64,000 bases of DNA from Chromatiales bacterium (GTDB lineage: Bacteria > Pseudomonadota > Gammaproteobacteria > SZUA-152). Below the pieces are notes generated by a model. It had not been told where the DNA came from, made no database searches, and saw only the letters and a list, made by a program, of their open reading frames with translations. Below, one piece after another: positions 1,018 to 30,973 of the stretch. The stretch's first letter is position 1. Every line of letters begins with the position of its first letter. The stretch is taken from positions 17,269 through 81,268 of the forward strand of contig JALVCE010000074.1 in NCBI GenBank assembly GCA_027010265.1, in the 5' to 3' direction. Both the position numbers and the translations under genes were made by a program.

Positions 1018-3888
1018 ATGCGTTTTGGCGGTAATTCATTGAAATTCAAGAAATCGTGTTTACAGCGAGGGTTGGGTGCCGCCCTCCTGCTGGGGGTGTT
1101 GGCCGGTTGCACTCAGGGGCAGGATCAGACCATCCCCGATTTCGCCATTGCCTACGTCAAGCGCCCGGTTCAGCTTGAGACCCAAACGGTCACGGTGACG
1201 GTCAATGGCACCGATATGGACGTGGACATCCTGGCGCCGGTGGATCCGGATGTGCGCGAGGCCACGGAATTCAATGAGGGCGGTGATGTGTACCTGCGTG
1301 AGCGGGCCTCTACCATTGCCGAGGAACGCAACATCACCCTGTGTATCACGGATCTCGATGGTGACGGTATCGGCACCGGTGATGTGCGGGATCTTGAGAC
1401 CAATTATGACGGCACCAAACTGATCTTCTCCCTGCGCCTGGAGGATCTCACCAATGGCAACAATCCGCCCAAGTGGGATATCTACGAATACGATACCACA
1501 GTGGGCGGTTGTCCCCGGCGGGTGATCAGTGATGATCTGGCCGCTGCCAAGGGCGATGATGTGGCCCCCCATTACCTGCCTGACGGACGCATCGTCTTCA
1601 GTTCCAATGCGGCGGTGACCACGCGCCAGGTGGAACTGGATGCCGGCAAGAGCCAATTCTCTCCCTTTGACGAAGACTTGCGCGAGGCCGCGGTGACCCT
1701 GCATGTGATGGACGCCGATGGCACCAATATCAAGCAGATCTCCTTCAATCAGAGTCACGACCTGGACCCCTCGGTGCTGAGCAGTGGTGAGATCGTGTTC
1801 TCCCGCTGGGACGGCGCTGGCAACCGTAGCGCGATTCGGCTTTACACCATCCACCCGGATGGCACCGAACTCAAGGCGCTGTATGGCATCCATGAGGCCA
1901 ATGTGGGTACCGGTGGCAGTACCGTGCAGTTCCTTGATCCTCGCGAATTGAGTAACGGAAAATTGCTAGCCATGTTGAAGCCCTTCAACGGCTCCGCTGG
2001 CGGCGGTGCGCCGGTGGAGATCGACATCAGCAATTACGCGGACAACAGCCAGCCCACGGTCCCCAATCTCGGTATGCTCACTGGACCGGGACAGAGTCAG
2101 GCTATCAATCTGGATGTGCGCACCGACGGTAGCATTTCTCCCGCCGGTCGCTATCGTTCGGTGTATCCCCTGGCGGACGGCAGCAATCGCGCCCTGGTGA
2201 GCTGGTCGCAGTGCCGCCTGCAGCCCACGGATTCACTGGGTTTGCCCGATACCACGCAGCTTCCGGTGCCTTGCCCGGACACCATCAATCCGGGCGACTG
2301 GGAAGCCTATCCCCTGTATGGCATTTATGTGTTCGATTTTACCGAGGATACCCAGCTGCCTGTAGTGATCCCCGAGGAAGGCATTCTCGTGGACGAACCC
2401 GTGGTGCTCGCGCCCCGTCCCCGTCCCACGGTATTGCTGGACAAGGTGGTGGGTCTGGAGCTGGATCAGGCCCTGGCGGAAGAGGAATTTGTGGGTATTT
2501 TGCATATCCGCAGCGTGTATGACTTCGACGGCACTTTCAACGCACTGGGAGGCTCCGCAGCGAGCTTGGATGACATGGCCAATCCCACCCTCACCGATGC
2601 CGATCAGCGTCCGGCCCGTTACCTGCGGATCCTCAAGGCGGCAGCGATTCCCGACCCGCGGGACAATACTACCGAGTTTGATACCGGCGTGGCCTTCGGT
2701 GCCGGTGGTCGTCGCGGCGGCATGCGTGAGATCATCGGCTATGCGCCCATTGAACCTGATGGCTCGGTGATGACCAAGGTGCCCGCCAACGTACCCCTGG
2801 CCATCGAGGTGGTGGACAAGAACGGCCGCCGCATTGGTGCGCGCCATCTGAACTGGATACAGGTGCGAGATGGCGAAACCCTGGAATGTAACGGCTGCCA
2901 CACACACACTACCACGGCGCCGGCACTGCCCGTGCCCCATGGTTATAGAGATGCCCCCACGCCACTCAACAGCGGGGCACCTACGTCCCCATACACCTTT
3001 CCCGGTACCAATGGCACCTTCGTGGCCGAGATGAACGAAACCATGGCCGAGGCGCGCATCCGTGTGAGCTGCACCAATGCCAGCTTTGTCTACGACAAAC
3101 GCGATACCGGTTGCCCGGAATTGAGTCCCAATCCCAACCCGGTGTTCTTTGACCTGTGGGCCCCCGCGGGTAACGCCATCGCAGACGACCTGAGTCTGCG
3201 ATATAGCAACCTAGACGTGTCTATGGCCAACGGCGTACCCATCGACAACCAGTGCATCCCCGGCGCCATCCCGGGGGCCAAGTGGGATTTCACCTGCCGC
3301 ACCATTATCAATTACGAGAAGAGCATCCACCCCCTATGGAGTCTGCCGCGGACAGACACCGCCACGGGCATGATGGATTACACCTGTACGGTGTGCCACA
3401 ACAATGTGGATACCGGCGGCGCGCCCATGGTGCCCGCGGCCCAACTGGATCTTAGCGATGGTCTGCGCCAGGACAACCCCGATCATTTCAAGGCCTATCG
3501 GGAGCTGCTGATCCAGGATGACGTCCAGTGGCAGCTGGATGGCACCGGCGCCCTGGTGCCGGTAACACAGCAGGTGCAGTTGGTGATTGATGGTGTGCCG
3601 CAATTTCAAACCATGGATGACGGCATGGGCAACCAGGTGCCGGTATTGGATGCCAATGGCGATCCGATACCCATTCTGGTGACAGAAAATGTACCGCCCA
3701 CCCAGGGGCCCACCATGTCGGTCAATGGGGCCCTGGCCAGCGCCGCCTTCTTTGATCGCTTTGTGAATACCGGGCAGGGCGATTTGCACGAGGGGCTGTT
3801 GACCCCTGCGGAGTTGCGATTGCTGTATGAATGGCTGGATATGGGCGCGCAATATTTCAACAACAGCTTTGACGCACCACCGCCATAA
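1018..3888 (+). CDS. Large lipoprotein: TolB/PD40-like beta-propeller, HZS-alpha middle-domain-like region, two c-type haem motifs
   Basis: Lipobox LAG|C. Propeller motifs (DVAPHYLPDGRIVFSS, QISFNQSHDLDPSVLSSGEIVFSRWD). GYAPIEPDGSVMTKVPANVP followed by CNGCH; second motif CTVCH. Start moved to ATG 1018. Confidence 0.8.
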   Translation: MRFGGNSLKFKKSCLQRGLGAALLLGVLAGCTQGQDQTIPDFAIAYVKRPVQLETQTVTVTVNGTDMDVDILAPVDPDVREATEFNEGGDVYLRERASTIAEERNITLCITDLDGDGIGTGDVRDLETNYDGTKLIFSLRLEDLTNGNNPPKWDIYEYDTTVGGCPRRVISDDLAAAKGDDVAPHYLPDGRIVFSSNAAVTTRQVELDAGKSQFSPFDEDLREAAVTLHVMDADGTNIKQISFNQSHDLDPSVLSSGEIVFSRWDGAGNRSAIRLYTIHPDGTELKALYGIHEANVGTGGSTVQFLDPRELSNGKLLAMLKPFNGSAGGGAPVEIDISNYADNSQPTVPNLGMLTGPGQSQAINLDVRTDGSISPAGRYRSVYPLADGSNRALVSWSQCRLQPTDSLGLPDTTQLPVPCPDTINPGDWEAYPLYGIYVFDFTEDTQLPVVIPEEGILVDEPVVLAPRPRPTVLLDKVVGLELDQALAEEEFVGILHIRSVYDFDGTFNALGGSAASLDDMANPTLTDADQRPARYLRILKAAAIPDPRDNTTEFDTGVAFGAGGRRGGMREIIGYAPIEPDGSVMTKVPANVPLAIEVVDKNGRRIGARHLNWIQVRDGETLECNGCHTHTTTAPALPVPHGYRDAPTPLNSGAPTSPYTFPGTNGTFVAEMNETMAEARIRVSCTNASFVYDKRDTGCPELSPNPNPVFFDLWAPAGNAIADDLSLRYSNLDVSMANGVPIDNQCIPGAIPGAKWDFTCRTIINYEKSIHPLWSLPRTDTATGMMDYTCTVCHNNVDTGGAPMVPAAQLDLSDGLRQDNPDHFKAYRELLIQDDVQWQLDGTGALVPVTQQVQLVIDGVPQFQTMDDGMGNQVPVLDANGDPIPILVTENVPPTQGPTMSVNGALASAAFFDRFVNTGQGDLHEGLLTPAELRLLYEWLDMGAQYFNNSFDAPPP

Positions 3889-3958
3889 CTTTTTGCCGGT
3901 TTGGTGGTCACATAGGCTGGCGGCTGGTTGTGATGTTTGACAGCCAGTAAGATAATCC

Positions 3959-4001
3959 CGCGAAACCAGGAACTACAGGGGGTTCCTGGTTTCGCGTTTT
4001 T
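3959..4001 (+). terminator. Putative intrinsic terminator
   Basis: CGCGAAACCAGGAAC...GTTCCTGGTTTCGCG followed by TTTTT, downstream of the 1018..3888 gene. Confidence 0.65.
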
Positions 4002-4072
4002 GCTTGTCCGGTTGAGATGCAGTCTGCCGGTTTCGAATCCCCTTCAATTTTCAACCGATGATTTCGTTGGCG

Positions 4073-4088
4073 CGTGATCCCCATCACA
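4073..4088. promoter_or_regulatory. CRP-type box (9/10 match)
   Basis: CGTGA-TCCCCA-TCACA in the intergenic region upstream of the operon starting at 4214. Confidence 0.5.
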
Positions 4089-4213
4089 GGCCGTGACATC
4101 AACGTGGCGTAAAAACTAAATAACAATAAAGAAACTGGGCGCTTAGCCGTTGATTTAATAGTGAAAATCCAAGCCACAACAAACCATCCGGAAAACCACC
4201 CAAGGGTCGGCGC

Positions 4214-4963
4214 ATGAAAGCTGATTGGATGCGTGCAGGCCTGTGTGCTTTGTTGTTGCTGGCCACAAGCTGGGCCTGGGCCGAGGAGGAGGCCTATCCG
4301 GAGGTGAAGGTCGCCGAGCCTTACATTGAGATGCACACGGGCCCCGGTGCCGGCTATCCGATTTTTAACGTAGTGGATCGCGGCGATTATGTGGAGGTGA
4401 TCAAACGCAAGACGGATTGGTTCAAGGTGCGCACCAGCGATCACAAGATTGGCTGGGTGAATCGCGCCCAAATGGAAATGACCCTAACGCCAAGTGGTGA
4501 GCCAACAGCGTTCGCCGATGCAGGCCTGGGTGATTTCAGCAAGCGTCGTTGGGAAATGGGCCTGGTGGGTGGCACATTCAACGGGGCGCCGGTGATGACC
4601 TTGTATGGCGCCTATGCTTTGTCGGCCAACCTGTCGGCGGAGTTGTCCGCCTCGCAAGTGACCGGTGATTTTTTCAGCAGTGATCTGATAAACATCAACC
4701 TGCTGACGCAGCCATTCTCGAAGTGGCGTTATTCACCATTTTTCACCCTGGGGGTAGGGCAGATCACCACCAGCCCCAGTGTGACCCTGATCCAGACGGC
4801 AGACAGCCAGGATCTGATTGCCCACATGGGGCTAGGCTTCAAGATGTATCTGACCCGGCGCTTTATTTTACGCGCGGAATATAAAACCTACGTCGAGTTT
4901 TCCAGCGACGACGACAACGAGGAATTTGAAGAATGGAAGGCAGGCTTCGCATTCTTTTTCTAA
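4214..4963 (+). CDS. SH3-domain plus outer-membrane beta-barrel protein
   Basis: Signal peptide AWA; bacterial SH3-like segment YIEMHTGPGAGYPIF...DWFKVRT...GWV; amphipathic strands ending in C-terminal Phe (AFFF). Confidence 0.8.
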   Translation: MKADWMRAGLCALLLLATSWAWAEEEAYPEVKVAEPYIEMHTGPGAGYPIFNVVDRGDYVEVIKRKTDWFKVRTSDHKIGWVNRAQMEMTLTPSGEPTAFADAGLGDFSKRRWEMGLVGGTFNGAPVMTLYGAYALSANLSAELSASQVTGDFFSSDLININLLTQPFSKWRYSPFFTLGVGQITTSPSVTLIQTADSQDLIAHMGLGFKMYLTRRFILRAEYKTYVEFSSDDDNEEFEEWKAGFAFFF

Positions 4964-5592
4964 GCCGCCCCGTATTGGGTGTGGTGCTGCTTTTTCTAAG
5001 CACAGCGGCATGGTCAGCGGACAAGGTAGCGTCCCAGGCACAGGTGATCCAGCCGCAGATTGAGCGGCGAGTTATCGATGTGGACAAGATCGATACGGAA
5101 GACTTCGAGATCGGGGTCTTTTCCGGCTTACTCAGCACCGAAGATTTTGGTACCAACCTGGTGATTGGCGCACGTGCCGCCTATCACGTCACCGAAGGTA
5201 TCTTTTTTGAAGCCGCCTATGCCAAGTCGAATACCACTGAAACCAGCTATGAGCGCCTCAGTGGTGGCGCACCATTGTTAACAGATGCGCAGCGTGAACT
5301 GACCTACTACAACGTTTCCATTGGATACAACCTGCTGCCGGGAGAAGCATTCCTGGGTGAAGGCTGGGCCTTCAATACGGCGTTGTATGTGATCGGTGGT
5401 GTGGGGATTACCAGTTTTGCCGACGACGACCGGTTCACCGTCAACTTCGGGGCCGGATACCGTTTTTTGGCCACAGACTGGCTGGCGGTGCATCTGGATG
5501 TGCGCGATCACATTTTTGATATTGACTTATTGGGCAAGGCCAAGACTGCCCACAATCTGGAGCTTACCGGTGGGCTCACCGTGTTTTTTTAA
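4933..5592 (+). CDS. OmpA-like outer-membrane beta-barrel (GltA/B/H-like type)
   Basis: Signal peptide; 8-strand-type pattern (GARAAYH, YNVSIGYNLLPGE, NFGAGYRF); C-terminal FF. Overlaps the upstream gene by 31 nt. Confidence 0.8.
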   Translation: MEGRLRILFLSRPVLGVVLLFLSTAAWSADKVASQAQVIQPQIERRVIDVDKIDTEDFEIGVFSGLLSTEDFGTNLVIGARAAYHVTEGIFFEAAYAKSNTTETSYERLSGGAPLLTDAQRELTYYNVSIGYNLLPGEAFLGEGWAFNTALYVIGGVGITSFADDDRFTVNFGAGYRFLATDWLAVHLDVRDHIFDIDLLGKAKTAHNLELTGGLTVFF

Positions 5593-5686
5593 CGGCATAA
5601 CGACGTGTTGTGTATTGGCGTAACAGCGAGGTAGTGTGATGAAAAGTGTTATGAAATGTGTATTGAGTAATTTGCAAGGCAAGGTG

Positions 5687-6172
5687 ATGAAATCCATCGT
5701 ATTGCTGGTCATAGGTATGTTGTTCTCGGCAAGCATACAGGCAGAGGAAATTCAGGGTCCAGCACCGGATTTCACCCTGAAATCCCGCAGTGGTGAGAAT
5801 ATCAAACTCAGTGAGCTGCGTGGTGATGTGGTGATGATCAACTTCTGGGCTTCCTGGTGTGCACCTTGCCGCCAGGAGATGCCGCTACTGGAAGATATGT
5901 ATAAAAAATACAACGATCTCGGTTTTACACTGCTGGGGATCAATGTTGAGGAGGACTCCAGTAAGGCAGGTGAATTGTTACGTGAAATACCGGTGACCTT
6001 CCCGGTTCTTTACGACACCACCAACAAGGTGACAAAACTCTATAACGTGGTAGCCATGCCCAGCACGGTGATAGTGGATCGTGATGGCAATATGCGTTAT
6101 CTGCATCGTGGCTATCTTCCGGGCTACGAGGAAGAGTATGTCAAACAAATAAAGACATTGATTCGGGAGTGA
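5687..6172 (+). CDS. TlpA/ResA-family periplasmic thioredoxin
   Basis: APDFTL...INFWASWCAPCRQEMP motif; signal peptide from ATG 5687. Confidence 0.92.
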   Translation: MKSIVLLVIGMLFSASIQAEEIQGPAPDFTLKSRSGENIKLSELRGDVVMINFWASWCAPCRQEMPLLEDMYKKYNDLGFTLLGINVEEDSSKAGELLREIPVTFPVLYDTTNKVTKLYNVVAMPSTVIVDRDGNMRYLHRGYLPGYEEEYVKQIKTLIRE

Positions 6173-6399
6173 ATGGAGCGATGAGAAGGCTGTTTGCAGT
6201 GATAGTCTTGATGCTGCTGCTTTCGGGCTGTGGAATTCAGCCCTGGGTGAAACCTTATGAGCGCGCTAATCTGGCAGACCCGATCATGAGTTTCAGCCGT
6301 GATCCGGTAGCCAGCGCCTATATCAATCACGTCTTCGAAGCCCGTGAAGGTGCGCGTGGTGCCGAGGGTGGTGCAGGTGGTGGCTGTGGTTGCAACTAG
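6169..6399 (+). CDS. DUF4266-type small lipoprotein
   Basis: Lipobox LSG|C; VKPYERANLADPIM; characteristic C-terminal GGGCGCN. Confidence 0.88.
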   Translation: MNGAMRRLFAVIVLMLLLSGCGIQPWVKPYERANLADPIMSFSRDPVASAYINHVFEAREGARGAEGGAGGGCGCN

Positions 6400-7561
6400 A
6401 CTCACGCGATTCGTAGAGAAATTACCGGCGGTAAATTTTCGTTGGGGATTGGTGATGGCTGGTGCACTTGGCATGTGTGTGCCACTGATGGCCGCCGTAT
6501 TGCCGGAGGATCGGGCTGATGCCATGTATCATTCCTATTCCGGTGGCGGGCTGGAAGTGAACGGGCCTTCGATCCTGGCACGTAAATCCATTGGTAAGCA
6601 TGTCTCGGTATGGGGGAATTATTATGTGGACAGCATTACCTCGGCTACCATCGATGTCGTGACCAGCGCCAGCCAGTACACGGAAGAGCGTACCGAACAA
6701 ACCCTGGGTGCTGACTATCTCCACGACAATACCACCATGAGCCTTTCCTATACCAGTAGTATCGAAAATGACTTCGATGCCAAGGCCATGAACTTCAGCA
6801 TCAGCCAGTTGATGTTTGGTGATCTCACCACGGTTACCCTGGGCTATGCCCGTGGCTGGGACATCATAACCGCCACCGGATCGCCGAATTTTGAAGAAGA
6901 GGCAAATCGCCAGAAATACAAACTGGGACTGTCGCAGGTGTTTAGCAAAAACCTGCTCATGGATTTGAGCTTCGAGACTATTACCGATGAGGGTTATCTC
7001 AACAATCCTTATCGCTCCGTGCGCTATCTGGTGGACCCCACCAGTTACGCTACCGAAGGTGAAGTGTACCCCAACACCCGCACCAGTCATGCTGCTGCGG
7101 TGCGTGCCTTGTATTACCTGCCATACCGGGCGGCGATACGAACTGAGGTACGCGGCTACACAGACACCTGGGGTATCAATGGCGTGATGGCAGAACTGGG
7201 TTATATTCATCCAACGAAAAATGGCTGGACATTTGAAGGAAGCTATCGTGTTTACTCACAGGACAGCGCCAGTTTTTACAGTGATTTGTTCAATGCCCCC
7301 AATGAATTCATATATCGCGCGCGGGACAAGGAGTTAAGTGCGTACTCGACCCAGACCATTGGCTTTGGCGCCAGTTATGAATTTAAAAAACATGGCTGGG
7401 GTTTTATCGACAAGGGTAGTGCCAATATTTTTTATAACCATATTCAGATTGATTACGAAAACTTTCGTGACCTGCGGGTCACCGGCGTCACGCCCGGCAC
7501 CGAACCCCTGTACAGCCTGCAGGCCAATGTGCTGAGGCTGTTTATTTCGGTGTGGTATTGA
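6380..7561 (+). CDS. DUF3570-type outer-membrane beta-barrel protein
   Basis: VLPEDRADAMYHSYSGGG, VDSITSATIDVVTSAS, GYLNNPYRSV, RARDKELS motifs; aromatic C-terminus; follows TlpA-DUF4266. Start uncertain (GTG 6380 or ATG 6455). Confidence 0.85.
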   Translation: MAVVATRLTRFVEKLPAVNFRWGLVMAGALGMCVPLMAAVLPEDRADAMYHSYSGGGLEVNGPSILARKSIGKHVSVWGNYYVDSITSATIDVVTSASQYTEERTEQTLGADYLHDNTTMSLSYTSSIENDFDAKAMNFSISQLMFGDLTTVTLGYARGWDIITATGSPNFEEEANRQKYKLGLSQVFSKNLLMDLSFETITDEGYLNNPYRSVRYLVDPTSYATEGEVYPNTRTSHAAAVRALYYLPYRAAIRTEVRGYTDTWGINGVMAELGYIHPTKNGWTFEGSYRVYSQDSASFYSDLFNAPNEFIYRARDKELSAYSTQTIGFGASYEFKKHGWGFIDKGSANIFYNHIQIDYENFRDLRVTGVTPGTEPLYSLQANVLRLFISVWY

Positions 7562-7606
7562 CGATTATTTTATTGAACATAAAAACAAGGCCCTGATGCG
7601 AGTGCA

Positions 7607-8206
7607 ATGATGAAAAAATTCCAATTGAAATTATGGCTGTGTCTGCTGCTGTTCCTTGTGCCGGTGATCGGCCAAGCGGAAGATGCGGAGCCCACGGCGA
7701 TCAATCCCTATGTGCGAACTCCGGCGCCTGCGGCACAGACCAGCCCGCCTGCCCCGGATAACCGCACCCTCGATCAACGGGTACAGGATTTGAAGAAAGA
7801 AGTGAAGGCCTTGAATCGTGACCTGTTCATTCTTGAAGAGGAACTATTGTTTCCGTCCAGCACCCAACTGGCAGTGTTTTTGTCCGTTGATGTGGGCGAA
7901 TTTTTCCGCCTGGATTCCGTGCAGCTGAAAATAGACGACAAGGTGGTGGCCAATCATCTTTACACCAAACGTGAATTGGGTGCCTTGAAACGCGGCGGTG
8001 TGCAGCGACTATACATCGGTAACGTCAAAGCCGGTGAGCATGAGTTGATTGCCACCTTTCGTGGCCCGGGGCCCAACAACCGGGAATACCGTCGCGGCAC
8101 GACGGTGAAGTTCAAGAAGGGTTCGGCGGCAAAATTCATGGAGCTGCGTATCGTGGATGCCACACGAAAACTTCAGCCCGAGTTCGTGGTCAAAGAATGG
8201 GAATGA
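7607..8206 (+). CDS. Exported coiled-coil plus beta-sandwich hypothetical protein
   Basis: Signal peptide; LKKEVKALNRDLFILEEELLFP coiled coil; GGVQRLYIGN motif; no HTH. Confidence 0.75.
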   Translation: MMKKFQLKLWLCLLLFLVPVIGQAEDAEPTAINPYVRTPAPAAQTSPPAPDNRTLDQRVQDLKKEVKALNRDLFILEEELLFPSSTQLAVFLSVDVGEFFRLDSVQLKIDDKVVANHLYTKRELGALKRGGVQRLYIGNVKAGEHELIATFRGPGPNNREYRRGTTVKFKKGSAAKFMELRIVDATRKLQPEFVVKEWE

Positions 8207-8219
8207 CTGTACGGGGATA

Positions 8220-10112
8220 ATGGTGTTTTCATTCAGGTCGTTTCGTTGTTTGCTGCTTTTGCCCGGTGCGTTATTGGCGCTGCCAGTGATGGCCAGCGCA
8301 CCACTGCCACAGGCTGTGGAAGATCCCCACTATGGGGTAGTGCTGTATGAATTTTATCAGCAGAATTATTTTTCCGCCGCGGTAAATCTGCTGACCGCTC
8401 AGCAACTCAAACGCCTCAAGCATCACGAGGACGATGCGGAGATCCTACTGGGCGGCCTGTATCTCTCCTATGGCTTGCACAGCGAAGCCGAAGAAATCTT
8501 CAAGCGTCTGCTGGACAAGCGGGCGTCACCTTCCGTACGCGACCGAGCCTGGTTTTACCTGGGCAAGATCCGTTATCAGAAACAATTGTTCCCTGAAGCC
8601 GAGGCGGCTCTGGCCCAGGTAGGCGAAGCACTTGACCCTTCCTTGCAGGAAGAATTTCGCACCCTCAAGGCCAATCTGTTGATGGCGCAGAAGAAATACA
8701 CCGAAGCAGCAGAGGCCCTGCAGGGACTGGTGGAAGATGACGACGAGGAGGAAGCCAATTATGCGCGCTTCAACCTTGGTGTGGCGCTGATACGTGCCGG
8801 CCGGGAAAAGGAGGGTGCCGATCTGCTGCGCCAGGTAGCCGAACTGAAGTCCAGCGCCAGCGATCAAAAGGCCCTGCGTGACAAGGCCAACCTGGTACTG
8901 GGATTTTCCCTGTTGAAGTCCGCGCCGGTACTGGCCAAGGATTTCTTTCGCCGGGTACGTTTGAACGGGCCTTATTCCAACAAGGCGTTGTTGGGTCTGG
9001 GCTGGGCCGAAGTGGAGTTGCAACGTTACGAACAGGCACTGGTGCCCTGGGATGAACTGGCGACCCGGGAAAAAACCGATCCCGCGGTGTTCGAGGCCAT
9101 GCTGGCGCGTGGTAATGCACTTGAGCGGTTGCGCGCCTTTCCACAGGCCATGCGAGCCTACAGTAATGCCATTGTTGTCTTTGAACAGGAACTGGCCGCA
9201 TTGAACAGTACTGTGGCGGCAGTTAAGGCAGGACGTCTTTGGGCGGACCTGTTGTCGCAGGTTTCACGGGATGAGATGGGCTGGTTCTGGGAAGCCGAGT
9301 TATTGCCCGACACACCCGAGGCAAAATATTTGCCCACGGTAATGGCAGGGCATGGTTTTCACGAGGCCATCAAGAATCTGCGTGACCTGTGGTTCCTGGA
9401 CAGAAACCTGGCGCGCTGGTCCACGGAGGTGCCGGCATTACAAGACATGCTAGCCTTGCGCCGTACAACCTACGAAGACCAACTTGACAAGCTCACCCCG
9501 GAGCAGACTCTGAGCCATGTGCTGGATGTGCGCACCAGCCGGGACATCTACGCCGATGAATTGAAACGCATCGGAGAATCCGGGGATGCCTTTGCCCTGT
9601 TGAGTGGTGAAGAACAAAAACGCATGCAGCGGTTGGCCCGTGTGGAAGAACGCATCTGGCGTCTGTCCAGTCAGCCAGGGCGTCACAGCCGGCGATTGGC
9701 ATCCTGGCGGGAGAAATATCGCCTGTATAAGGGGCTGCTGGATTACGATGTTGAAACCACCTTTGCGATTCGTTATCGCAAGGTTCAGAAGAGTCTCAAT
9801 TCCCTGGATGCAGAACTGGAAGAAACGCTGCGCCGGCAGAATTCCCTGCAACGTGTGAGAGCCACCGCACCGGCGAACTTTGCTGGTTATGCCCAAGATA
9901 TTGAAAACAAGCGTCAGCGCATTGTCGGCCTGCGCAAAGATATCAAGGCAGCCTTTGATGAACAGCAGCGCCAATTGCAGTCCATGGCGGATGTGGAGCT
10001 GGATCGGCTGCGCCTGCGCCTGGTGGACTATCTGGATCAGGCACGCTTTTCCTTGGCACATTTGCAGGACCTGGCCACCGATGCGGCTGAATCGGGCAAG
10101 GAGCTGAAATGA
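8220..10112 (+). CDS. Periplasmic TPR/coiled-coil protein (GltC-like)
   Basis: Signal peptide; TPR motifs (RDRAWFYLGKIRY, YARFNLGVAL, ALLGLGWA); coiled-coil C-terminus. Confidence 0.8.
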   Translation: MVFSFRSFRCLLLLPGALLALPVMASAPLPQAVEDPHYGVVLYEFYQQNYFSAAVNLLTAQQLKRLKHHEDDAEILLGGLYLSYGLHSEAEEIFKRLLDKRASPSVRDRAWFYLGKIRYQKQLFPEAEAALAQVGEALDPSLQEEFRTLKANLLMAQKKYTEAAEALQGLVEDDDEEEANYARFNLGVALIRAGREKEGADLLRQVAELKSSASDQKALRDKANLVLGFSLLKSAPVLAKDFFRRVRLNGPYSNKALLGLGWAEVELQRYEQALVPWDELATREKTDPAVFEAMLARGNALERLRAFPQAMRAYSNAIVVFEQELAALNSTVAAVKAGRLWADLLSQVSRDEMGWFWEAELLPDTPEAKYLPTVMAGHGFHEAIKNLRDLWFLDRNLARWSTEVPALQDMLALRRTTYEDQLDKLTPEQTLSHVLDVRTSRDIYADELKRIGESGDAFALLSGEEQKRMQRLARVEERIWRLSSQPGRHSRRLASWREKYRLYKGLLDYDVETTFAIRYRKVQKSLNSLDAELEETLRRQNSLQRVRATAPANFAGYAQDIENKRQRIVGLRKDIKAAFDEQQRQLQSMADVELDRLRLRLVDYLDQARFSLAHLQDLATDAAESGKELK

Positions 10113-13018: not shown

Positions 13019-13328
13019 CACGTACACAAAAAAATTGTCAATCCTCCAATGCCTGTTTGCCTTTTGCCTGTGGTTGCTGCCGCTTGGCTACTTGATGGCC
13101 GAGGTGAAACTGGAGCTGGAGGAGACGGAGATTACCGGTGCCCGTGAATTACCCAAGGTGTTGTACATTGTGCCGTGGAAAAAAACCGCGCCGGATGCAC
13201 GCCCCCTGCCCATGAAAAGCATGATGAATGAAGTGCTGGAGCCCATTGATATGGATGTTTTCCGGCGCCAGGTGCGTTATTTCGAGTTCACCCATCCGGC
13301 CCCTGATCCGCAAGCAGCCCCACAATAG
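13005..13328 (+). CDS. Small exported protein (GltF/CglF-like)
   Basis: Signal peptide followed by LEETEITGARELPKVLYIVPW; follows the TPR genes. Confidence 0.65.
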   Translation: MPLNSTYTKKLSILQCLFAFCLWLLPLGYLMAEVKLELEETEITGARELPKVLYIVPWKKTAPDARPLPMKSMMNEVLEPIDMDVFRRQVRYFEFTHPAPDPQAAPQ

Positions 13329-18406: not shown

Positions 18407-18450
18407 GTTATGCACTCCAAAGCGTGAACAATAAACTGATATTTTCGACA

Positions 18451-18467
18451 AGCAGTATTTATGCCAA
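18451..18467 (-). promoter_or_regulatory. Sigma54 promoter of the PEP-CTERM gene
   Basis: Minus strand TTGGCATAAATACTGCT, GG-N10-GC. Confidence 0.75.
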
Positions 18468-22611: not shown

Positions 22612-22617
22612 GCTTTA

Positions 22618-23901: not shown

Positions 23902-24087
23902 GGCGCCGCCTGCGGTGTTCGACACTGTATCGGAATTTTCTTGGCCTATGCTTAACCCTGTTGGGGACATTACATCGGTGTTGTGTGCACGTCCGCGCCG
24001 CGGAAAGCCTGATACGCCGATTGTTGTGCCCACTTTATCGCTCCGGTCCCAAGAGCGACGATGCAACCGGCACGTGTGGGTGGCGCC
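23902..24087 (+). ncRNA. ssrS: 6S RNA
   Basis: About 185 nt between zapA and ygfA (canonical position); ends pair (GGCGCCGCCTGCGGTG / CACGTGTGGGTGGCGCC); central CGGAAAGCCT. Ends are approximate. Confidence 0.85.
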
Positions 24088-24116
24088 TCTTATTTCTTTT
24101 CTCCCGAGTTGTTTGC

Positions 24117-25053: not shown

Positions 25054-25076
25054 TTGTTACAGGGTTATTTCCTCCG

Positions 25077-25127
25077 TGTGGGAGCGCCTTTCCAGGCGCG
25101 AATCCCGCCTGGAAAGGCGCTCCCACA
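25077..25127. repeat. GTGG/GTAG-type REP doublet (REPIN-like)
   Basis: TGTGGGAGCGCCTTTCCAGGCGCGAATCCCGCCTGGAAAGGCGCTCCCACA; near-identical copy at 62812. Confidence 0.85.
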
Positions 25128-25215
25128 GCATTTGGCATGGTATAAGTGCGCCATGGGATTAGGGCCTGTTAAAGCAAACTTGAGACCCTCAGAAATTTCC
25201 GGATCCTGCCCCCAC

Positions 25216-26865
25216 TCAGCGGATGGGGTCAAAGGCCGTGAGGCTCATCATGTGTGCATCGGTGCCCAGGTCGTTGTTGGGGAACAGGCTGCGATAGACG
25301 TTGCGGTAATCGGTGCCATGCAAGGCCAGGTAATTGAGCACCACGGTGTCCACCAGCAGGTTGACGTTGTTGGCGGCTACGGAGGAAGCGGTTTCCACTG
25401 AGCCGTCGGCGCGGAACCAGCCGAGCTGCTGATGACGTTCCGGGCCCAGGGTGTCGCCGCTGAACAGTGTGGCTTGTCCGCCATTTTCCGTGGGGTTGTA
25501 GACTAGGAAAAAGGCGCCGGCGGTGGAAGAGTTGTCGCCGGTCCACACACCCTTGCCGCGGCCATCTACCGAGCCGTCGGTGGAGCCATTGCTGGCAACG
25601 GAACCGTCGCTGAAGACATAAAGCATCAGGGGCATGCGCATGCGTGCGGCATATTCCAGGCAGGCGCCCATGCAGCGTCCGGCGCGCAGGTCGCGGCGTT
25701 CGCCGGTGGAACGGTCGCCGGTGTGGTAGTCGAAGCCCCCCATGGTGATGGTGCCGGCTCCGGCGTGACCATCGATGACCATTTTCATCACGGCGGCGGT
25801 TTTGCGGAATTCCCCTTCGTTGTCGAATTCATTCTGGTCGAAGATGGCATTGCCGCTGTTAGTGGGATCTACAATATTGCTGTCCGTGGCGGGATCCACG
25901 TCCACACCTACGAAGCGGTCGGCGATGTCCGCCGCATTGAGATAACCACAGTTCACCAGGTCTTTCACGACGGTGGCGGCATTGATATTCGCGACTTTCT
26001 TGTCGCTGAGGCGGGCGATGGATTCCATTACCGCCTTGGCGTCGGTTTCAGTCAACACGGCGGTGAGATCTCCGGTGTCCACCATGCCGGTAACGTCCGA
26101 GGGTCGATCAACCTTAGTGGGTCGGATGGAGGGGTCGATGCTGTCCGGCGGGGCCATGGAATTGCCGCCGGACTCGGAATTACGCGAGCCGATCAGCGTG
26201 ACCACGTCACCATCGGCGCCGGTGGCAGCGATGCGGTACATGGGGTTGTGCGGGTTGTTGCCGGTGTCATTGTCGGAACGGGCGGGAATCACGGCGCCGT
26301 TCACGAAGGGCGCGGTACCCGTGAGGCTGATTTTTTCCAGGATGCCGCGCAGAAAGCCGCTGTCGGAATGAAAGGGCAGGCCCAGGCGGGTGTCGATCCA
26401 GTCATTGTTGGGGCCACTCATGGCCGAGGCGGCGGCATCCACCACGCCGGGCACCATGTCGCCGGGAATGCCCATCTTGCTGTAGCCCGCGGCGCTGATG
26501 GGATCGTTGAGATAGCCGCCCTGACCTCCGGCTAGCACGTTGGAGCCGATGATGTTGGAGCCGCCGGCCAGATCAAAACAAATAAAAGGCACCTTGGTGC
26601 CAATGGCACCCAGGGAGCAGCCGGGGAGGCTGTTGGCCAGGGTGCTCAGATCCGATGACAGGGCCGCCTGCGCGGCACGCGGATTAGTGAACAGACTGAA
26701 TACCGAGCCGCCGAGGGTGATGCCTGCGCCGGTGAGAAAGCCCTGACGCAGGAAGTCCCGTCGCGTCACCGGGCGCTTGTGATCCTGATGCAGCAGGGGT
26801 GCATCGGGTGAGAGCCCGTGGCGATTCTTCTTCAGGCGTCGCGCGGTGGATGTTTTCTTGGCCAT
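25216..26865 (-). CDS. Tat-exported protein (DUF1501/DUF1552-like motifs)
   Basis: Twin-arginine signal VTRRDFLRQG...AAQA; FICFDLAGG, GGFDYH and YVFSDG motifs reminiscent of DUF1501-type proteins. Confidence 0.75.
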   Translation of the reverse strand: MAKKTSTARRLKKNRHGLSPDAPLLHQDHKRPVTRRDFLRQGFLTGAGITLGGSVFSLFTNPRAAQAALSSDLSTLANSLPGCSLGAIGTKVPFICFDLAGGSNIIGSNVLAGGQGGYLNDPISAAGYSKMGIPGDMVPGVVDAAASAMSGPNNDWIDTRLGLPFHSDSGFLRGILEKISLTGTAPFVNGAVIPARSDNDTGNNPHNPMYRIAATGADGDVVTLIGSRNSESGGNSMAPPDSIDPSIRPTKVDRPSDVTGMVDTGDLTAVLTETDAKAVMESIARLSDKKVANINAATVVKDLVNCGYLNAADIADRFVGVDVDPATDSNIVDPTNSGNAIFDQNEFDNEGEFRKTAAVMKMVIDGHAGAGTITMGGFDYHTGDRSTGERRDLRAGRCMGACLEYAARMRMPLMLYVFSDGSVASNGSTDGSVDGRGKGVWTGDNSSTAGAFFLVYNPTENGGQATLFSGDTLGPERHQQLGWFRADGSVETASSVAANNVNLLVDTVVLNYLALHGTDYRNVYRSLFPNNDLGTDAHMMSLTAFDPIR

Positions 26866-26913
26866 GGTCTTGTCCTCAGTACGTCTGTCTGTTGCTGTTG
26901 TGTCAGTGTGGGC

Positions 26914-29688
26914 CTATTGAATGATCATCGCCGCGCTGCCCAGTACTGCGGTACACAGCGCCTTGACCACCGACGGGGTGCGTGCGGCATCATTGCTGCA
27001 ACTGGCGTCGGCCTGGCAGGCATTGTACAGGCGGTCGTACAGATTGCCCGGGTGGCCAGCCGGTGCGGCGGCATCATCGGGGCCCACCAGTTCGGTACGC
27101 AGTTCCGTGCGGCTGGGCATGTTGCTCAGCGAGACACCGCCGATACCCACCATCTTGTCGTAGAGGGCATCCACGATCTGGTTTTTCTCGGTGCTGCCAG
27201 CAAAGGCTGTGGCCACCGGTGAGTTGAAGGCGAAGCTGCCGAAGAAGTTGTCGCGCAACGTGGTGTCGTCCACCAATGCGTCACAGTAGGCGATGGCCAG
27301 TTGGGCCACGGCCATTTCATGGGCGGCGAGGAAGCCGTTGATATTCTCGTCGGTGGGCAGGGCCTGTTTGATGCCGGTGACGGTGCCGGTGCTTTCGTCG
27401 TAATAGGTTTTCAGCACCTTGGGGTGGCGCGCCGTGTCGTAGGGATCCACTCCGGTCATGGCTGACATGGAGGCGAGGATCTCCTCAAAGGTGCGCAGAC
27501 CCACTTCGGGTACAGGGGTACCATCTACGGCGGTGGTGGTGCAGGTGATGTTGCTGCCGCACACTTCGGGCACACGGGTATTCTGGTTGCCATCGATATC
27601 CTCGAAGGTGAGGAAGAACTCATCGCTCCCCGCGCCCTTTTGCAGTTCGATGATGGTGCCGGTGTTCGACAGCACCTGCTGACCGGTGGCAGTGTCAAAC
27701 GCGGTACCCCCCAGGGTGGTGTCGAGGTTGACGTAGGCCTGGCCCACCGAGGGTTCCTTGCCATTGAGTCCGATACGCATGCCCTTGATCACCGTGCCGC
27801 TGGGGGTGAAGGCCGGATTGAGGCTGAGGAAGGTGGGCTGGGTGAACAGATAGCTGTAGTTGTCGAACTGACTGGCGATGAAGTAAATGAAACACTGGTG
27901 CTCGCCGTTGACGATGCACTCGGGGTTGTTGGCCTGCATTAGCTCGCTGACACTGAACAGCAGGTAGAATTTCTGGCCCACGCCGGCATCGAAATTCTGT
28001 TGCACCTGGCTGGGTGTCATGGCGCGGTTGTGGATGGCCACCAAGCGCAGTTTGCCTTCCCAGGGCTCGCTGAAGTCTGCCTCGTTGCCCATGCTGAAGG
28101 CGTAGGTGGGATCCCAGTTGATCAGGTTGCCCGGGGGGAGCAGGGGATCCACATCGGCATTGCCGGTGGTGGAGACGTCCACACCGTTCACATAGACTTT
28201 ACGCCCGGTCGTTTGATCAAAGGTGACCACCACGTGTTGTTGGGTGGATTGCAGGTCTTCATCCGCATCATCGGTGAGCATGGTGTTGCCGTTGGCGCTG
28301 GCCTCGGCGGAGCTGCGATTCATGAAGGCGTAGCGGTATTCGGCCTGTCCCAGGGTGAAATTGCGCTCATTGGCGCCACCGGAATAGTTGATGATGCGTG
28401 CCGGGTCATTGGCATCGCCTTGAGAGATATTGGCGGGAACCACCCAGGCCTCGATGGAATAGGCGCTGCTGCCAAGGATGGAGGTGAGCAGCTTACGGCT
28501 GTCTTGCGTGGTGGCCTGGGCCTTGGCGCTGCCGGTGAGGAATTCCACACCCCAGCCGCCTACCCAACGATAGTCCGTACCCTCGTTGCCATAGAGCTTG
28601 AGATTCAGGGGTACGCCCACGCCGCTGGTGTCATAAATAGTGGTGCCGGAGCCGGCCTTGAACTCATACAGGGCGATGGTGCTGGAATCGTCCCGGGTGC
28701 CGCCGCTGGCGACGATGCCGTCCAGCAGGGTCAGTGCCTTGCTGACCTTCCAGCTGGCGTCCACCGCGGTGGTGGTGATGGTGCCGGCAAAGGCCTCGAT
28801 GGCCTGCTGCATGAGAATGGCACAGTTCTTACGGCCCTCGGTAACGGCCTGTTGCAGGGTGCTGCTGAGATCCCAGCAGTTGTGGCCCTCGTCCATGCGC
28901 GCCACCAGGCGGGAATCCCGCGGGGTGTCCAGGCTGATCTTCTGACTGGCGACGATAGCGGCGTAGGAGACATCGCGGTCGGTGTCGGCAAAGAAGGGTG
29001 TTTGCGGGACCGAGGCGGACTCGGTGTGACAATTGACACAATACTGGGTTAACAGGCTGTGCACGCCGTCATAACCGGCGGGGGCGGTGGCGGGAAAGTT
29101 CTTGCTTTGCCCCGTATCCTTGATGGTGGGTGAGCTGAGGGTTATCACATTGGTCTGGCTGCCCGTGCCGGCGCCGGCCACACCGCCGTTGGCCCAATTG
29201 GTGATGTAGGTGGTGGCGTTGGTGGCCAGGGTGCTGCAGGCACTGGGACTGCCGCAGTTGTGGCCGTTGTTGATCCTGGTGATGATGGCGGAGTTAGCCG
29301 GATTGGATTTGTCCACCAGATTGCGGCTGATCACCTGGCCGTAGGCGGTGTTGATGTCCGCGGTATCCATGAAATAGGGTTCCTGGCTGCCGGTTTCGGT
29401 GTTGTGGCAGTTCTCGCAATCGGCGGCATCGAGCATCTTGGCCCAGAATTCGGTCTGGAAATTGCAGATGTCTTCCACGGTATTGGGATCGGTGCTGACT
29501 TCGTTACAGGCCTGGCCGGTGTAGGCCGCGGCGCTGGTGCCGCTGCCGCCGCCAGTCACGGAAGGCGCCTGGGGGACGCTGTCACAGGCCGAGAGCAACA
29601 GGCCACTGAACAGGAGGGTCAGCGTCCACCCGGCCTGACGGCGGGCATGGTGAATGGCGCGGGGAGTGGTACGGCTTGGATTGTTCAT
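26914..29688 (-). CDS. Lipoprotein with two c-type haem domains and a LamG/concanavalin-A-like domain
   Basis: Lipobox LSA|C; CENCH and CVNCH, each followed about 50 aa later by GHNC; LamG motifs (YSIEAWVVP, QHVVVTFD...KVYVNG, WEGKLRLVAIHNRAMT). GGAG RBS supports ATG 29688. Confidence 0.82.
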   Translation of the reverse strand: MNNPSRTTPRAIHHARRQAGWTLTLLFSGLLLSACDSVPQAPSVTGGGSGTSAAAYTGQACNEVSTDPNTVEDICNFQTEFWAKMLDAADCENCHNTETGSQEPYFMDTADINTAYGQVISRNLVDKSNPANSAIITRINNGHNCGSPSACSTLATNATTYITNWANGGVAGAGTGSQTNVITLSSPTIKDTGQSKNFPATAPAGYDGVHSLLTQYCVNCHTESASVPQTPFFADTDRDVSYAAIVASQKISLDTPRDSRLVARMDEGHNCWDLSSTLQQAVTEGRKNCAILMQQAIEAFAGTITTTAVDASWKVSKALTLLDGIVASGGTRDDSSTIALYEFKAGSGTTIYDTSGVGVPLNLKLYGNEGTDYRWVGGWGVEFLTGSAKAQATTQDSRKLLTSILGSSAYSIEAWVVPANISQGDANDPARIINYSGGANERNFTLGQAEYRYAFMNRSSAEASANGNTMLTDDADEDLQSTQQHVVVTFDQTTGRKVYVNGVDVSTTGNADVDPLLPPGNLINWDPTYAFSMGNEADFSEPWEGKLRLVAIHNRAMTPSQVQQNFDAGVGQKFYLLFSVSELMQANNPECIVNGEHQCFIYFIASQFDNYSYLFTQPTFLSLNPAFTPSGTVIKGMRIGLNGKEPSVGQAYVNLDTTLGGTAFDTATGQQVLSNTGTIIELQKGAGSDEFFLTFEDIDGNQNTRVPEVCGSNITCTTTAVDGTPVPEVGLRTFEEILASMSAMTGVDPYDTARHPKVLKTYYDESTGTVTGIKQALPTDENINGFLAAHEMAVAQLAIAYCDALVDDTTLRDNFFGSFAFNSPVATAFAGSTEKNQIVDALYDKMVGIGGVSLSNMPSRTELRTELVGPDDAAAPAGHPGNLYDRLYNACQADASCSNDAARTPSVVKALCTAVLGSAAMIIQ

Positions 29689-29740
29689 GGTCATGCTCCA
29701 GAAAAACCTTTTGTTAGTCTCGGCCCGGTAATGCCGTGCG

Positions 29741-30973
29741 TTAGTTGCCCTTGCAGAATGCGGCGGAGTCGGCAAATACCTGTTTCAGTTTGTGGCCATT
29801 GCCCTGAAAGGTATTGATCATGGTGTTGATCTGGTCTCGGTCGCTCTGATCCACAGGGCCACGCAGGCAGACCGCCTTGAAGACTTTCTCCACCTGGCAG
29901 CGGGCGAAGGCGTCGCTGTGCGCCAGTTCCTGCCCCATGGAGGCGGCACCGCTGCCACTGCCCGGCAGGGCTCCATCCCATCCCAGGGCGCTGTTGCTGC
30001 CGGTGCGCCAGTAGTTGTCCCAGTTATCGTTGGGGGTGACAAAACCGTACTCAAAATTGCTGCTGTTTTGCAGGTACTTGGGCTGCACGCTGCCGGGGGT
30101 GTAGACCAGTTGGCCGGCGTCATAATTCGGGTCGCCATTGCCATCCAGCGGATAGCTGTAGTCATAGTAGGCGAAGGCCTGGGTCATGGGGTCCATGCCG
30201 CTATGGCAGCCAACACAAGCGTTCATGAAGATGCGGCTGTCACCACCGGGGCTGCGTGAGACGTCCTGGCGGATACGATCCGGCGGGTAGCTGGGGTCCT
30301 TTACCTGTTCCATGTCCTTGCACAGGTGGTTGAGCATGGTGAAACGGAACATGGCGCGATTGGTGCCGTCCACGAAAAAGGCCTTGGCGGCGGCGCGGCT
30401 GGTGAGCACCCCGGCGGGGGCGGCGAGGCCCGTGGCCGCGGACTGGGTGGTGCGGGTAAGCACGGCCTGCAGGTCGGCGCCCGAGTCTTCCAGCGCCTTG
30501 TAATGGCTGTTACCGGTGGTCAAAACCGCAGCGCTGGGATTGCCCGGGCCGGTATAGAGGACGTCATCGTAAAGGATCTTGCGGAAGTCATCGTCGTCCC
30601 GGATGATACCTATCACCGTGGCAGTGTAGTCATTGAGTGGGGCGAAGACGGTCTGTTCTTCATTGGTCCAGGGAGTGATGAAGTTTTTCAGAGTCACACG
30701 ATAGAAATCGGCGCCGATGCAGGCGTCCGTGCCGCCATCGTTGGTGATGGCGTCCATCGCGGCGCCGGCGGCATCGTTGGCGATGACCTTGGTTTCCAGT
30801 TGATCCAGGCAGGCGGCGCTAGGAGGGGTGCCCACCAGGCGGTCATGAATACGCTTGGCCTGTTCGCGCGTACCCGCCAGGGTGTTGCCGGCGGCCAGCA
30901 CAGACATCACCAGTGCAAGACTGACGCCAGCGGTTCGTTGCGCAAAAGAGAGTGGGGAATGTTGTGTACTCAT
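29741..30973 (-). CDS. Exported mono-haem c-type protein (DUF1585-like C-terminus)
   Basis: Signal peptide; CVGCH; C-terminal GQELAHSDAFARCQVEKVFKAVCLR. Confidence 0.78.
   Translation of the reverse strand: MSTQHSPLSFAQRTAGVSLALVMSVLAAGNTLAGTREQAKRIHDRLVGTPPSAACLDQLETKVIANDAAGAAMDAITNDGGTDACIGADFYRVTLKNFITPWTNEEQTVFAPLNDYTATVIGIIRDDDDFRKILYDDVLYTGPGNPSAAVLTTGNSHYKALEDSGADLQAVLTRTTQSAATGLAAPAGVLTSRAAAKAFFVDGTNRAMFRFTMLNHLCKDMEQVKDPSYPPDRIRQDVSRSPGGDSRIFMNACVGCHSGMDPMTQAFAYYDYSYPLDGNGDPNYDAGQLVYTPGSVQPKYLQNSSNFEYGFVTPNDNWDNYWRTGSNSALGWDGALPGSGSGAASMGQELAHSDAFARCQVEKVFKAVCLRGPVDQSDRDQINTMINTFQGNGHKLKQVFADSAAFCKGN

Follow-up and report, generated by a model that had tools for sequence, protein, structure and literature searches.

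A conserved gene set of haem, thiol and outer-membrane barrel proteins travels with a Glt-type core and points to a predicted outer-envelope redox machine

Two loci in a 64,000-nt stretch of the Chromatiales bacterium genome GCA_027010265.1 (contig C74, JALVCE010000074.1, positions 17269-81268; genome code G000), here called the window, encode haem, thiol and outer-membrane (OM) barrel proteins together with part of a scaffold resembling that of the Myxococcus Agl-Glt complex. Locus A (1018-13328, forward strand) has ten genes, numbered A1 to A9, with A4 for the thioredoxin TlpA, A4b for a DUF4266 lipoprotein and A5 for a DUF3570 protein; locus B (25216-30973, reverse strand) has three, B1 to B3, for a total of 13. 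Gene neighbourhoods in relatives show that the two loci are dispersed parts of one conserved gene set that travels with a Glt-type core, a block that begins with A6 and in complete clusters carries three secreted tetratricopeptide repeat (TPR) proteins and motor genes. The composition of this set points to an undescribed redox machine, predicted to act at the outer envelope.

A search with a five-sequence A8 alignment found 547 relatives in species-representative genomes, and the best 80 were fetched with 10-kb flanks and searched by tblastn with all window proteins plus those of a paralogous cluster on contig C101 of the same genome. We distinguish type I loci, with the A1-A2-A3-TlpA-DUF4266-DUF3570 genes upstream of A6, from type II loci, with B1-B2-B3 in that place. 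Type I genes lie directly upstream of A6 in 21 of these 80 A8-anchored loci; 17 of the 21 carry all six genes from A1 to DUF3570 in the window's order, and ExbB follows in 17, the other four ending at most 1 kb from A8. In 19 of the 80, type II genes immediately precede A6 and share its strand, with A1 divergent from B1 in 15 of the 19 and often with a TlpA-like gene without CxxC between B3 and A6. Type I loci come from Burkholderiales metagenome-assembled genomes (MAGs), an Aquabacterium isolate, Acidiferrobacteraceae and a Thiogranum MAG, and type II loci mostly from Steroidobacteraceae, plus three other lineages. Named isolates include Peristeroidobacter agariperforans KA5-B (core and B3) and Aquabacterium sp. 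A7-Y (type I operon and motor).

When B3 served as the anchor, 47 places were fetched in 44 genomes. B1, B2 and B3 occur together in 45 of them (the two exceptions are cut by contig ends), and A1 and B1 are divergent in 31. Eighteen of the 47 places have the core within reach: in 15 it follows immediately on the same strand, in two it is convergent, and in L117 B1-B2-B3 and A1 through DUF3570 lie on one strand, with A6-A7 divergent. We then chose eight loci, from six family codes, in which A8 lies 12-14 kb from B3 on the A1 side. In all eight, B3-B2-B1 is divergent from A1-A2-A3-TlpA-DUF4266-DUF3570-A6-A7-A8 (A7 is sub-threshold in L138). The small TPR gene, A9 and ExbB follow A8 where the fetched stretch extends (ExbB is seen in 3/8), and ExbD-ExbD-TonB-like genes come after ExbB in those relatives' loci that reach so far. 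Locus B therefore joins the core in three arrangements: divergent, upstream and convergent. A preliminary description of this DNA had treated the two loci as parts of one machine, and the contiguity of their genes in other Gammaproteobacteria, in 8/8 divergent clusters and in 15/47 places upstream of A6-A7-A8, bears out the genetic side of that proposal. At the outset we had thought it likely that locus B was an independent module; this view was dropped on the neighbourhood evidence.

The distribution of the genes agrees with their arrangement. Among about 400 evenly sampled Gammaproteobacteria genomes, with B3 sought by a 20-sequence profile, A8 is present in 77, B3 in 48 and A1 in 51. As phylogenetic profiling of the two loci would have it if they belong together, B3 and A1 are almost never found without the scaffold gene A8 (46/48 and 50/51 genomes, respectively), and A1 is present in 42 of the 48 B3 genomes. 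At the family level, by a hand tally of codes, 30 of 32 B3 families have A8, compared with 49 of about 240 overall. The two genomes with B3 and no A8 are G020, where the sequence is a fragment at a contig end, and G062, a complete genome. The core is found without B3 in 31/77 genomes and is therefore not dedicated to these genes. The pattern is thus nested: the cargo genes, as we call A1 to DUF3570 and the B trio, need the core, and the core does not need the cargo genes.

The motor of the window's genome is encoded on C101, in a cluster that reads A6'-A7' (489 aa)-A8'-small TPR-A9'-ExbB-ExbD-ExbD-TonB-like and is followed by an SprA-related gene; its anchor gene matches TonB_C (2.8e-5). In a tree of A8 sequences, made by a quick method with SH-aLRT support only, the window copy groups with the type I copies of its own family, and the C101 copy falls in a separate clade of plain cores. 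An origin of the C101 core in the Steroidobacteraceae type II clade is contradicted by this tree.

The motor-less state of locus A is shared. All four other members of the window's family that were examined have A1-A9 without motor genes; in two of the four the whole gene order is that of the window, down to the position of B after the cyclo-ligase gene, and in one of the four, G017, B adjoins a plain core instead. Between the window copy and that of L008, the proportion of non-synonymous differences (pN) is 0.07-0.13 and that of synonymous differences (pS) 0.66-0.82, so the motor-less copy is under purifying selection. Outside the family, G199, G186 and G308 (three family codes) have a B-linked scaffold with no ExbB within about 7 kb and a second core copy that carries the motor; the split between cargo-bearing scaffold and motor is therefore recurrent. 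The loci at which cargo-bearing scaffold copies without a motor recur in other families are L091, L093, L099, L072 and L150-L152.

Turning to the proteins, the open reading frames (ORFs) located by the preliminary description are all present. It had counted 12 exported proteins; the export signals, all read from translations, stand, and the number of genes is 13. Four of the 13 proteins have lipoboxes (A1, LAGC; DUF4266, LSGC; A8, LAGC; B2, LSAC), A2, A3, TlpA, A6, A7 and B1 have ordinary signal peptides, A5 (counted from an internal Met at 6455) and A9 have a hydrophobic N-terminal stretch, and B3 has the twin-arginine motif TRRDFL. The five c-type haem motifs that had been reported are likewise all found as CxxCH, and they are kept in relatives from the fetched loci. 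The genes of locus A are all co-directional and overlapping or tightly packed, save for a 325-bp gap after A1.

A1 (1018-3888, forward strand) encodes a lipoprotein in which a beta-propeller is combined with an HZS_alpha-like middle domain (CNGCH) and, at the C-terminus, a haem domain (CTVCH). The gene is the first of the type I operon and, in relatives, is divergent from B1. The middle domain matches Pfam HZS_alpha (PF18582; 8.8e-15), and the sole relative in the PDB is 5c2v_A, the alpha subunit of hydrazine synthase (3.3e-8). Matching pieces follow one another in the same order in both proteins, from the propeller through to the C-terminal helix, with CNGCH on CSGCH; the match is weak overall, its significant stretches being the propeller part and the CxxCH site of the middle domain. 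Against the equivalog model NF052339, A1 scores 50.5 bits, where the cut-off is 800. Both CxxCH motifs are kept in 12/12 relatives. A2 (4214-4963, forward strand) joins an SH3 domain (SH3_3, 3.9e-10, above cut-off) to a small OM barrel (OMP_b-brl, 9.2e-5, 23.1 bits, under the 28.7-bit cut-off; its TIGR04565 match is weak). A3 (4933-5592, forward strand) is an OMP_myx_plus barrel and gives the only full match to TIGR04565 in the genome (2e-50). The two genes adjoin each other in type I loci, a conserved arrangement; a complex prediction for the two barrels from alignments scored 0.27, under the mark of 0.32.

TlpA (5636-6172, forward strand; probable start 5687) is a periplasmic thioredoxin with a CAPC site and matches AhpC-TSA (1.7e-30) and Redoxin (3.1e-27) in Pfam. 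Type I relatives retain its CxxC, and type II relatives have AGDS or the like in its place; in L020, L043, L048, L075 and other type II loci the TlpA-like protein has AGDS, EGDS or similar, and DUF4266 and DUF3570 are absent. The DUF4266 gene (6169-6399, forward strand; Pfam 8.4e-23) encodes a 76-aa lipoprotein ending in GGGCGCN, of which the C-terminal CGC is kept in 21/21 relatives. DUF3570 (A5; 6344-7561, forward strand; probable start 6455; Pfam 2.4e-32) is a predicted OM barrel with tandem DSITSAT and DVVTSAS sites. The columns of these motifs are conserved in relatives, with mostly N, S or T where the canonical site has Gly, and in the Glt-linked subfamily of DUF3570 the site-1 Gly is kept in only 1/23 members. 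Elsewhere in the genome, a stand-alone TlpA (CPPC)-DUF4266 (CGCN)-DUF3570 (DVLTGAS)-ApbE cluster lies at C14:3529-6781 on the reverse strand. Because this second cluster is the canonical one, the trio of locus A is a diverged paralogue.

Flavin supply can be followed through ApbE. When the unassigned ORFs of 135 relatives' loci were clustered, one large extra family emerged, and it is ApbE (2.2e-81). The gene lies inside the cluster in 34 of the 135 loci, variously in the gap between B3 and A6, in the gap between DUF3570 and A6, ahead of TlpA-A6 (in Woeseiaceae cores), upstream of A1 and just after B3. This recurrence makes an involvement of flavin plausible, and, to judge from gene content, flavinylation is plausibly part of the system in relatives. 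A flavin component had been part of the redox chain first proposed; it is favoured by the 34 loci and disfavoured in the window itself, where locus A has no ApbE and DUF3570 no canonical glycine. The genome's two ApbE genes are on contigs C12 and C14. Also encoded elsewhere in the genome are CcmE, of system I cytochrome maturation, and DsbD; on C102 a TlpA-like match lies about 800 bp past the DsbD_TM match, and the TlpA query has matches on 12 contigs besides the window's own.

The core block opens with A6 (7607-8206, forward strand), which encodes a secreted protein of 199 aa and precedes A7 in most core loci. Neither A6 nor A9 matches a Pfam or NCBIfam family. Clusters of A6 in the Atlas are automatically named 'AraC family' and those of B3 'GspF family'; because neither name has Pfam support, both are likely propagated misannotations. 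A7 (8157-10112, forward strand; probable start 8220) is a secreted TPR protein of 651 aa with a long helical tail (TPR_16, 1.9e-15) and a 489-aa paralogue on C101, and A8 (10109-13018, forward strand) is a TPR lipoprotein of 969 aa that matches the YbgF/CpoB and BamD profiles (YfiO in Pfam, 7.7e-17; tol_pal_ybgF in NCBIfam, 1e-30). By size and position, A7 is predicted to be GltE-like and A8 GltD-like. A9 (13005-13328, forward strand; 107 aa, with a hydrophobic N-terminal segment) has a paralogue on C101 and in complete clusters keeps its position between the small TPR gene and ExbB.

In locus B, B1 (29741-30982, reverse strand; start 30973 or 30982) encodes a secreted mono-haem protein with a weak PSD2/DUF1585 C-terminus (PSD2, 5.2e-5, 23.3 bits, under the cut-off of 25.8; PSCyt3, E 0.067). 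Across its family, PSD2 is matched in 7/18 members (E up to 0.1) and PSCyt3 weakly in 5/18, and the CVGCH motif is kept in 18/18 relatives; the AlphaFold2 (AF2) model of B1 is poor (pLDDT 53). B2 (26914-29775, reverse strand) is a lipoprotein with two CxxCH motifs (CENCH and CVNCH) and a LamG domain (Laminin_G_3, 2.4e-16), which is matched in 19/19 family members as their only Pfam domain. Each of its haem motifs is kept in 19/20 relatives, the single miss being a mis-called short ORF. An hhalign comparison of B1 with B2 found only the haem motif in common (probability 3%). Profile searches of the PDB gave nothing significant for the B1 and B3 families, a single-sequence PDB search with B3 was also empty, and the B2 profile had one marginal match (E 0.0044) to a short stretch of an uncharacterised protein. 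A response-regulator/GGDEF gene (31569-32726, reverse strand) lies directly upstream of B1 on the same strand; its regulation of the B trio in the window's lineage is possible.

B3 (25216-26865, reverse strand; 549 aa) is Tat-exported and belongs to a very large unnamed family, with at least 7995 clusters in the protein collection. None of 20 members matches Pfam, and B3 matches no NCBIfam family; the 120 clusters listed are without a Pfam domain and, where the source gives a name, it is 'hypothetical protein'. The AF2 model (pLDDT 69, pTM 0.72) gives weak Foldseek matches (best E 0.023, with E 0.001 reached by none); the 50 listed consist of alkaline phosphatases, MCR-1, cofactor-independent phosphoglycerate mutases, sulfatases and, in addition, PorX. 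On the strength of the model, the fold is probably that of the alkaline-phosphatase superfamily. In an Atlas feature search the nearest named clusters were those of DUF1501 (score 0.92); the DUF1501 model itself fails to detect B3 even at E 10.

In the window, locus A follows gcvT-H-P and a tandem glycine riboswitch. The riboswitch (515-710, reverse strand; two aptamers, 61 and 42 bits) stands ahead of gcvT, about 300 bp from the start of A1. Scans of the stretch between A and B identified a GT2 gene (after A9), a cell-wall hydrolase, a UPF0149 gene, 6S RNA and a 5-formyl-tetrahydrofolate (THF) cyclo-ligase; reading of translations added a Na+/H+ exchanger-like ORF, two ubiquinone-hydroxylase-like ORFs (ubiI/ubiH) and an aminopeptidase-P-like ORF. 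The stretch also holds two genes without an assigned family, one PEP-CTERM (17783-18451, reverse strand, 4.7e-8). The 6S/SsrS RNA (23904-24086, forward strand, 86 bits) lies between the UPF0149 and 5-formyl-THF cyclo-ligase genes, and because of its position the cyclo-ligase ORF start at 23961 is too far upstream. In Escherichia coli, gcvTHP and ubiI-ubiH-pepP-ygfB-ssrS-ygfA form one block; in the window (1-24707) and in L002, gcvT is separated from ubiI by locus A and five other genes, as though these had been inserted.

How might these parts work together? By analogy with known systems, A and B would be the redox cargo of a Glt-core or Tol-like motor and its TPR scaffold, serving a redox reaction at the outer envelope, and we hold this reading to be somewhat likelier right than wrong. 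As in the Myxococcus complex, the TPR proteins A7 and A8 would bridge the periplasm to an OM platform of small barrels (A2, A3 and DUF3570). On this platform the haem lipoproteins, A1 and B2, would be held or exposed, and B1 and Tat-exported B3 would partner them. Thiol reductant taken from DsbD would be passed on by TlpA together with DUF4266, the lipoprotein with the CXC end, ApbE, encoded elsewhere in the genome, may flavinylate DUF3570, and the ensemble would perform an outer-envelope redox reaction on some substrate. The window's scaffold copy, which would have lost its motor, would either borrow that of C101 or act as a static scaffold. Extracellular electron transfer and the uptake of a substrate bound by LamG, both named in the preliminary description, are conjecture.

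Several observations weigh against this reading. In the window, 11.9 kb of housekeeping genes lie between A and B, and B points away from A; because these genes intervene, the loci are not one operon there, and a word search for an upstream motif shared by A1 and B1 returned only 9-10-mers of chance size. Locus A ends at A9 and is without the small (GltC-like) TPR gene, ExbB, ExbD, the TonB-like gene and ApbE. On its own it does not amount to a trans-envelope scaffold; the small TPR, ExbB, ExbD and TonB-like genes are in the paralogous cluster on C101. Comparison of A7 and A8 with NCBIfam gave generic TPR, YbgF and BamD matches and no Glt-specific match, and the window's DUF3570 reads TSAT/TSAS, without the canonical flavinylation glycine of [S/T]GA[S/T]. 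In the relatives, the two gene sets are never found together within the 10-kb flanks of the 80 A8-anchored loci, and the distance between B trio and core is 31 to 193 kb in several genomes. A1 and A8 occur without B3 in nine genomes, the 31 of 77 A8 genomes without B3 include 22 that lack A1 as well, and 3/5 genomes checked have type I clusters and no B3 anywhere. G062 (L101, C1:1998710-2018709) has the B trio and A1 in two pieces with no A8 match; this locus may be a system in decay. Finally, related genomes do not count as independent, so that the co-occurrence figures exaggerate the support, and no p-value is claimed for them.

The separations just described would be expected if the Glt-like core, TlpA/DUF4266/DUF3570, A1 and the B trio had separate envelope functions and were co-localised by shared regulation or co-transfer, with no single complex. 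Loci with the core alone (22/77 genomes), with core and type I genes or with core and type II genes, the solitary TlpA-DUF4266-DUF3570-ApbE cluster on C14, the B trios far from any core and the housekeeping genes between A and B in the window would all fit such an assembly of modules. We nevertheless think it distinctly unlikely: the order is tight and co-directional across many family codes, with no more than ApbE and/or a TlpA-like gene, or under about 2 kb, from B3 to A6, and with A6 following DUF3570; B3 and A1 are nearly always nested in core genomes; and B attaches to the core in three different arrangements. A further alternative, which we regard as very unlikely, is envelope biogenesis, in which a Tol-Pal-like paralogue would insert, mature or tether OM lipoproteins and cytochromes, TlpA would be the dedicated reductant for the CxxCH of apocytochromes, and the system would have no catalytic redox chain itself. 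TlpA-type thioredoxins reduce apocytochromes and copper proteins, and TolB has a beta-propeller, as does A1; the YbgF/CpoB and BamD profile matches of A8 and the four lipoproteins among 13 proteins also speak for biogenesis. However, the genome already has system I maturation and TlpA-query matches on 12 other contigs. Moreover, the recurrence of ApbE, DUF4266 and DUF3570, the last of them proven in a relative to be a flavoprotein substrate (Meheust 2021, PMC8238504), argues for electron transfer over assembly only.

Energised uptake accounts for the motor in another way: an ExbB/ExbD/TonB-like motor would import a nutrient or metal through DUF3570 or the small barrels, the haem, thiol and flavin proteins would reduce or release the substrate in the periplasm (e.g. 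ferric chelates), LamG of B2 would bind it and B3, with its phosphatase fold, would process it. The anchor protein of complete clusters does have a TonB_C domain, there are three barrels, LamG is a domain of carbohydrate-binding type, and the Foldseek matches of B3, weak as they are, are almost all to alkaline-phosphatase-superfamily enzymes. From the literature come a VIT1 iron transporter in 25 DUF3570 clusters and a tie between flavinylation and iron reduction (Meheust 2021, PMC8238504), as well as a carbohydrate role suggested for the LamG-bearing cytochromes of the Planctomycetes-Verrucomicrobia-Chlamydiae (PVC) bacteria (He 2017, PMC5615132). We consider uptake unlikely, since the conserved neighbours include no TonB-dependent receptor, inner-membrane transporter or binding protein, A2 and A3 (about 220-250 aa) are small for transport barrels, three large TPR proteins in a scaffold are a trait of Glt and Tol and not of Ton uptake, and the fold call for B3 is weak, with no Foldseek match reaching E 0.001. 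Vibrio TonB2/Ttp clusters were considered and set aside on a presumed difference in gene content.

The reading of A and B as redox cargo of the core can be extended in a direction that we find rather doubtful. The native job of the proteobacterial Glt core would then be to power or position an OM redox enzyme complex: proton-driven motor and TPR scaffold would gate or expose A1 and B2 through GltA/B-like barrels, a thiol-to-flavin relay (DsbD-TlpA-DUF4266-DUF3570) would carry electrons through the periplasm, and gliding in Myxococcus would be a later re-use. If the core were indeed such a motor for a redox complex, four large orphan gene sets (the Glt core, the DUF3570 set, the HZS-alpha-like proteins and the PSCyt-like/Tat pairs) would belong to one machine carrying out extracellular or surface redox chemistry. 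What the Glt core does in non-gliding bacteria is left open in the account of Luciano 2011 (PMC3169522), and our literature searches found no later answer. Nor did they find a publication linking these gene sets, the search covering texts apart from the supplementary tables of PMC3169522, PMC8238504 and PMC12758564. The DUF3570/DUF4266 set, the hydrazine-synthase-alpha-like proteins and the B3 family are orphans alike, and their recurrence as one cluster across many gamma- and betaproteobacterial families gives all of these sets a common, testable context. A physical link, if there is one, would amount to a new means of coupling proton-motive force to cell-surface chemistry.

Each part of the gene set has a likeness among known systems. 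Homologues of hydrazine synthase alpha outside anammox bacteria have no known function (Hagglund 2025, PMC12758564), and the main text of that paper does not mention Gammaproteobacteria or Pseudomonadota. A1 shares with hydrazine synthase alpha a middle domain with CxxCH, two haem motifs and a weak collinear match, but differs in being a lipoprotein and in falling far under the equivalog cut-off. No beta- or gamma-like hydrazine synthase genes are among the conserved neighbours, the neighbourhoods being the scope of this negative. In PVC bacteria, PSCyt/PSD cytochromes with LamG are reported to pair with the Tat-signal families DUF1501 and DUF1552 (He 2017, PMC5615132). Locus B resembles these pairs in its haem proteins with Laminin_G_3 and a PSD2-like end beside the Tat-exported B3; it differs in that PSCyt models do not match, PSD2 is sub-cut-off, the domains are split over two genes (B1 and B2) and the DUF1501 model does not detect B3.

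The trio of a thioredoxin-like protein, DUF4266 and DUF3570 has been found beside ApbE, often with DsbD; a DUF3570 protein is flavinylated at two [S/T]GA[S/T] sites, and a relay of reductant from DsbD has been proposed for TlpA/DUF4266/DUF3570 (Meheust 2021, PMC8238504). Here, the TlpA-type thioredoxin, DUF4266 with its C-terminal CXC and DUF3570 stand in the same order, and ApbE lies inside many relatives' clusters. In contrast, the trio here forms part of a Glt-like operon that also encodes haem proteins and barrels, locus A has neither ApbE nor DsbD, and its DUF3570 has TSAT/TSAS in place of [S/T]GA[S/T]. The main text of PMC8238504 contains no ExbB, TolQ or tetratricopeptide term; its supplementary tables may list such clusters. 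With Tol-Pal, the gene set shares a proton-driven stator of TolQ/TolR type, an anchor with a TonB/TolA-like C-terminus, the YbgF/CpoB-like TPR match of A8 and a periplasmic or OM beta-propeller partner. It differs in a much larger TPR scaffold, two ExbD-type genes, the presence of haem proteins and the lack of an identified Pal-type peptidoglycan-binding lipoprotein.

The closest comparison is with Agl-Glt. In the Myxococcus model, CglB, a lipoprotein with a beta-propeller, is exposed by three barrels (GltA, GltB and GltH) together with GltK, and the TPR protein GltC is the link from these barrels to GltD, GltE, GltF, GltG and the motor (PMC11761067). A gammaproteobacterial 'core complex' has been described with aglR, aglQ and aglS plus gltC, gltD, gltE and gltG in one region and an additional gene, and GltA, GltB and GltF are reported to be restricted to Myxococcales and Bdellovibrionales (Luciano 2011, PMC3169522). 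No GltI, GltJ, GltK, GltH or AglZ was seen in the clusters studied here, the cargo consists of haem, thiol and flavin proteins where Myxococcus has an adhesin, and locus A is without the TolQ/ExbB gene, the TolR/ExbD pair and the TonB/TolA-like (GltG-like) anchor, which are present on C101 and in relatives' clusters. The Glt-like reading first proposed for the window fits the complete clusters, which match the core-complex composition (ExbB, two ExbD, TonB-like and three TPR genes); locus A itself has no motor. In likeness to Agl-Glt, these clusters hold a TolQ/ExbB-like protein, two TolR/ExbD-like proteins, a TonB-like anchor, three size-matched secreted TPR proteins and extra small genes, all within one region. 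Compared by size and composition, locus A contributes two large secreted TPR proteins (A8, 969 aa; A7, 651 aa), for which the Myxococcus counterparts are GltD of about 1191 aa and GltE of about 471 aa (Table 1, PMC3169522), and its small OM barrels, encoded beside a beta-propeller lipoprotein, recall GltA/GltB and CglB.

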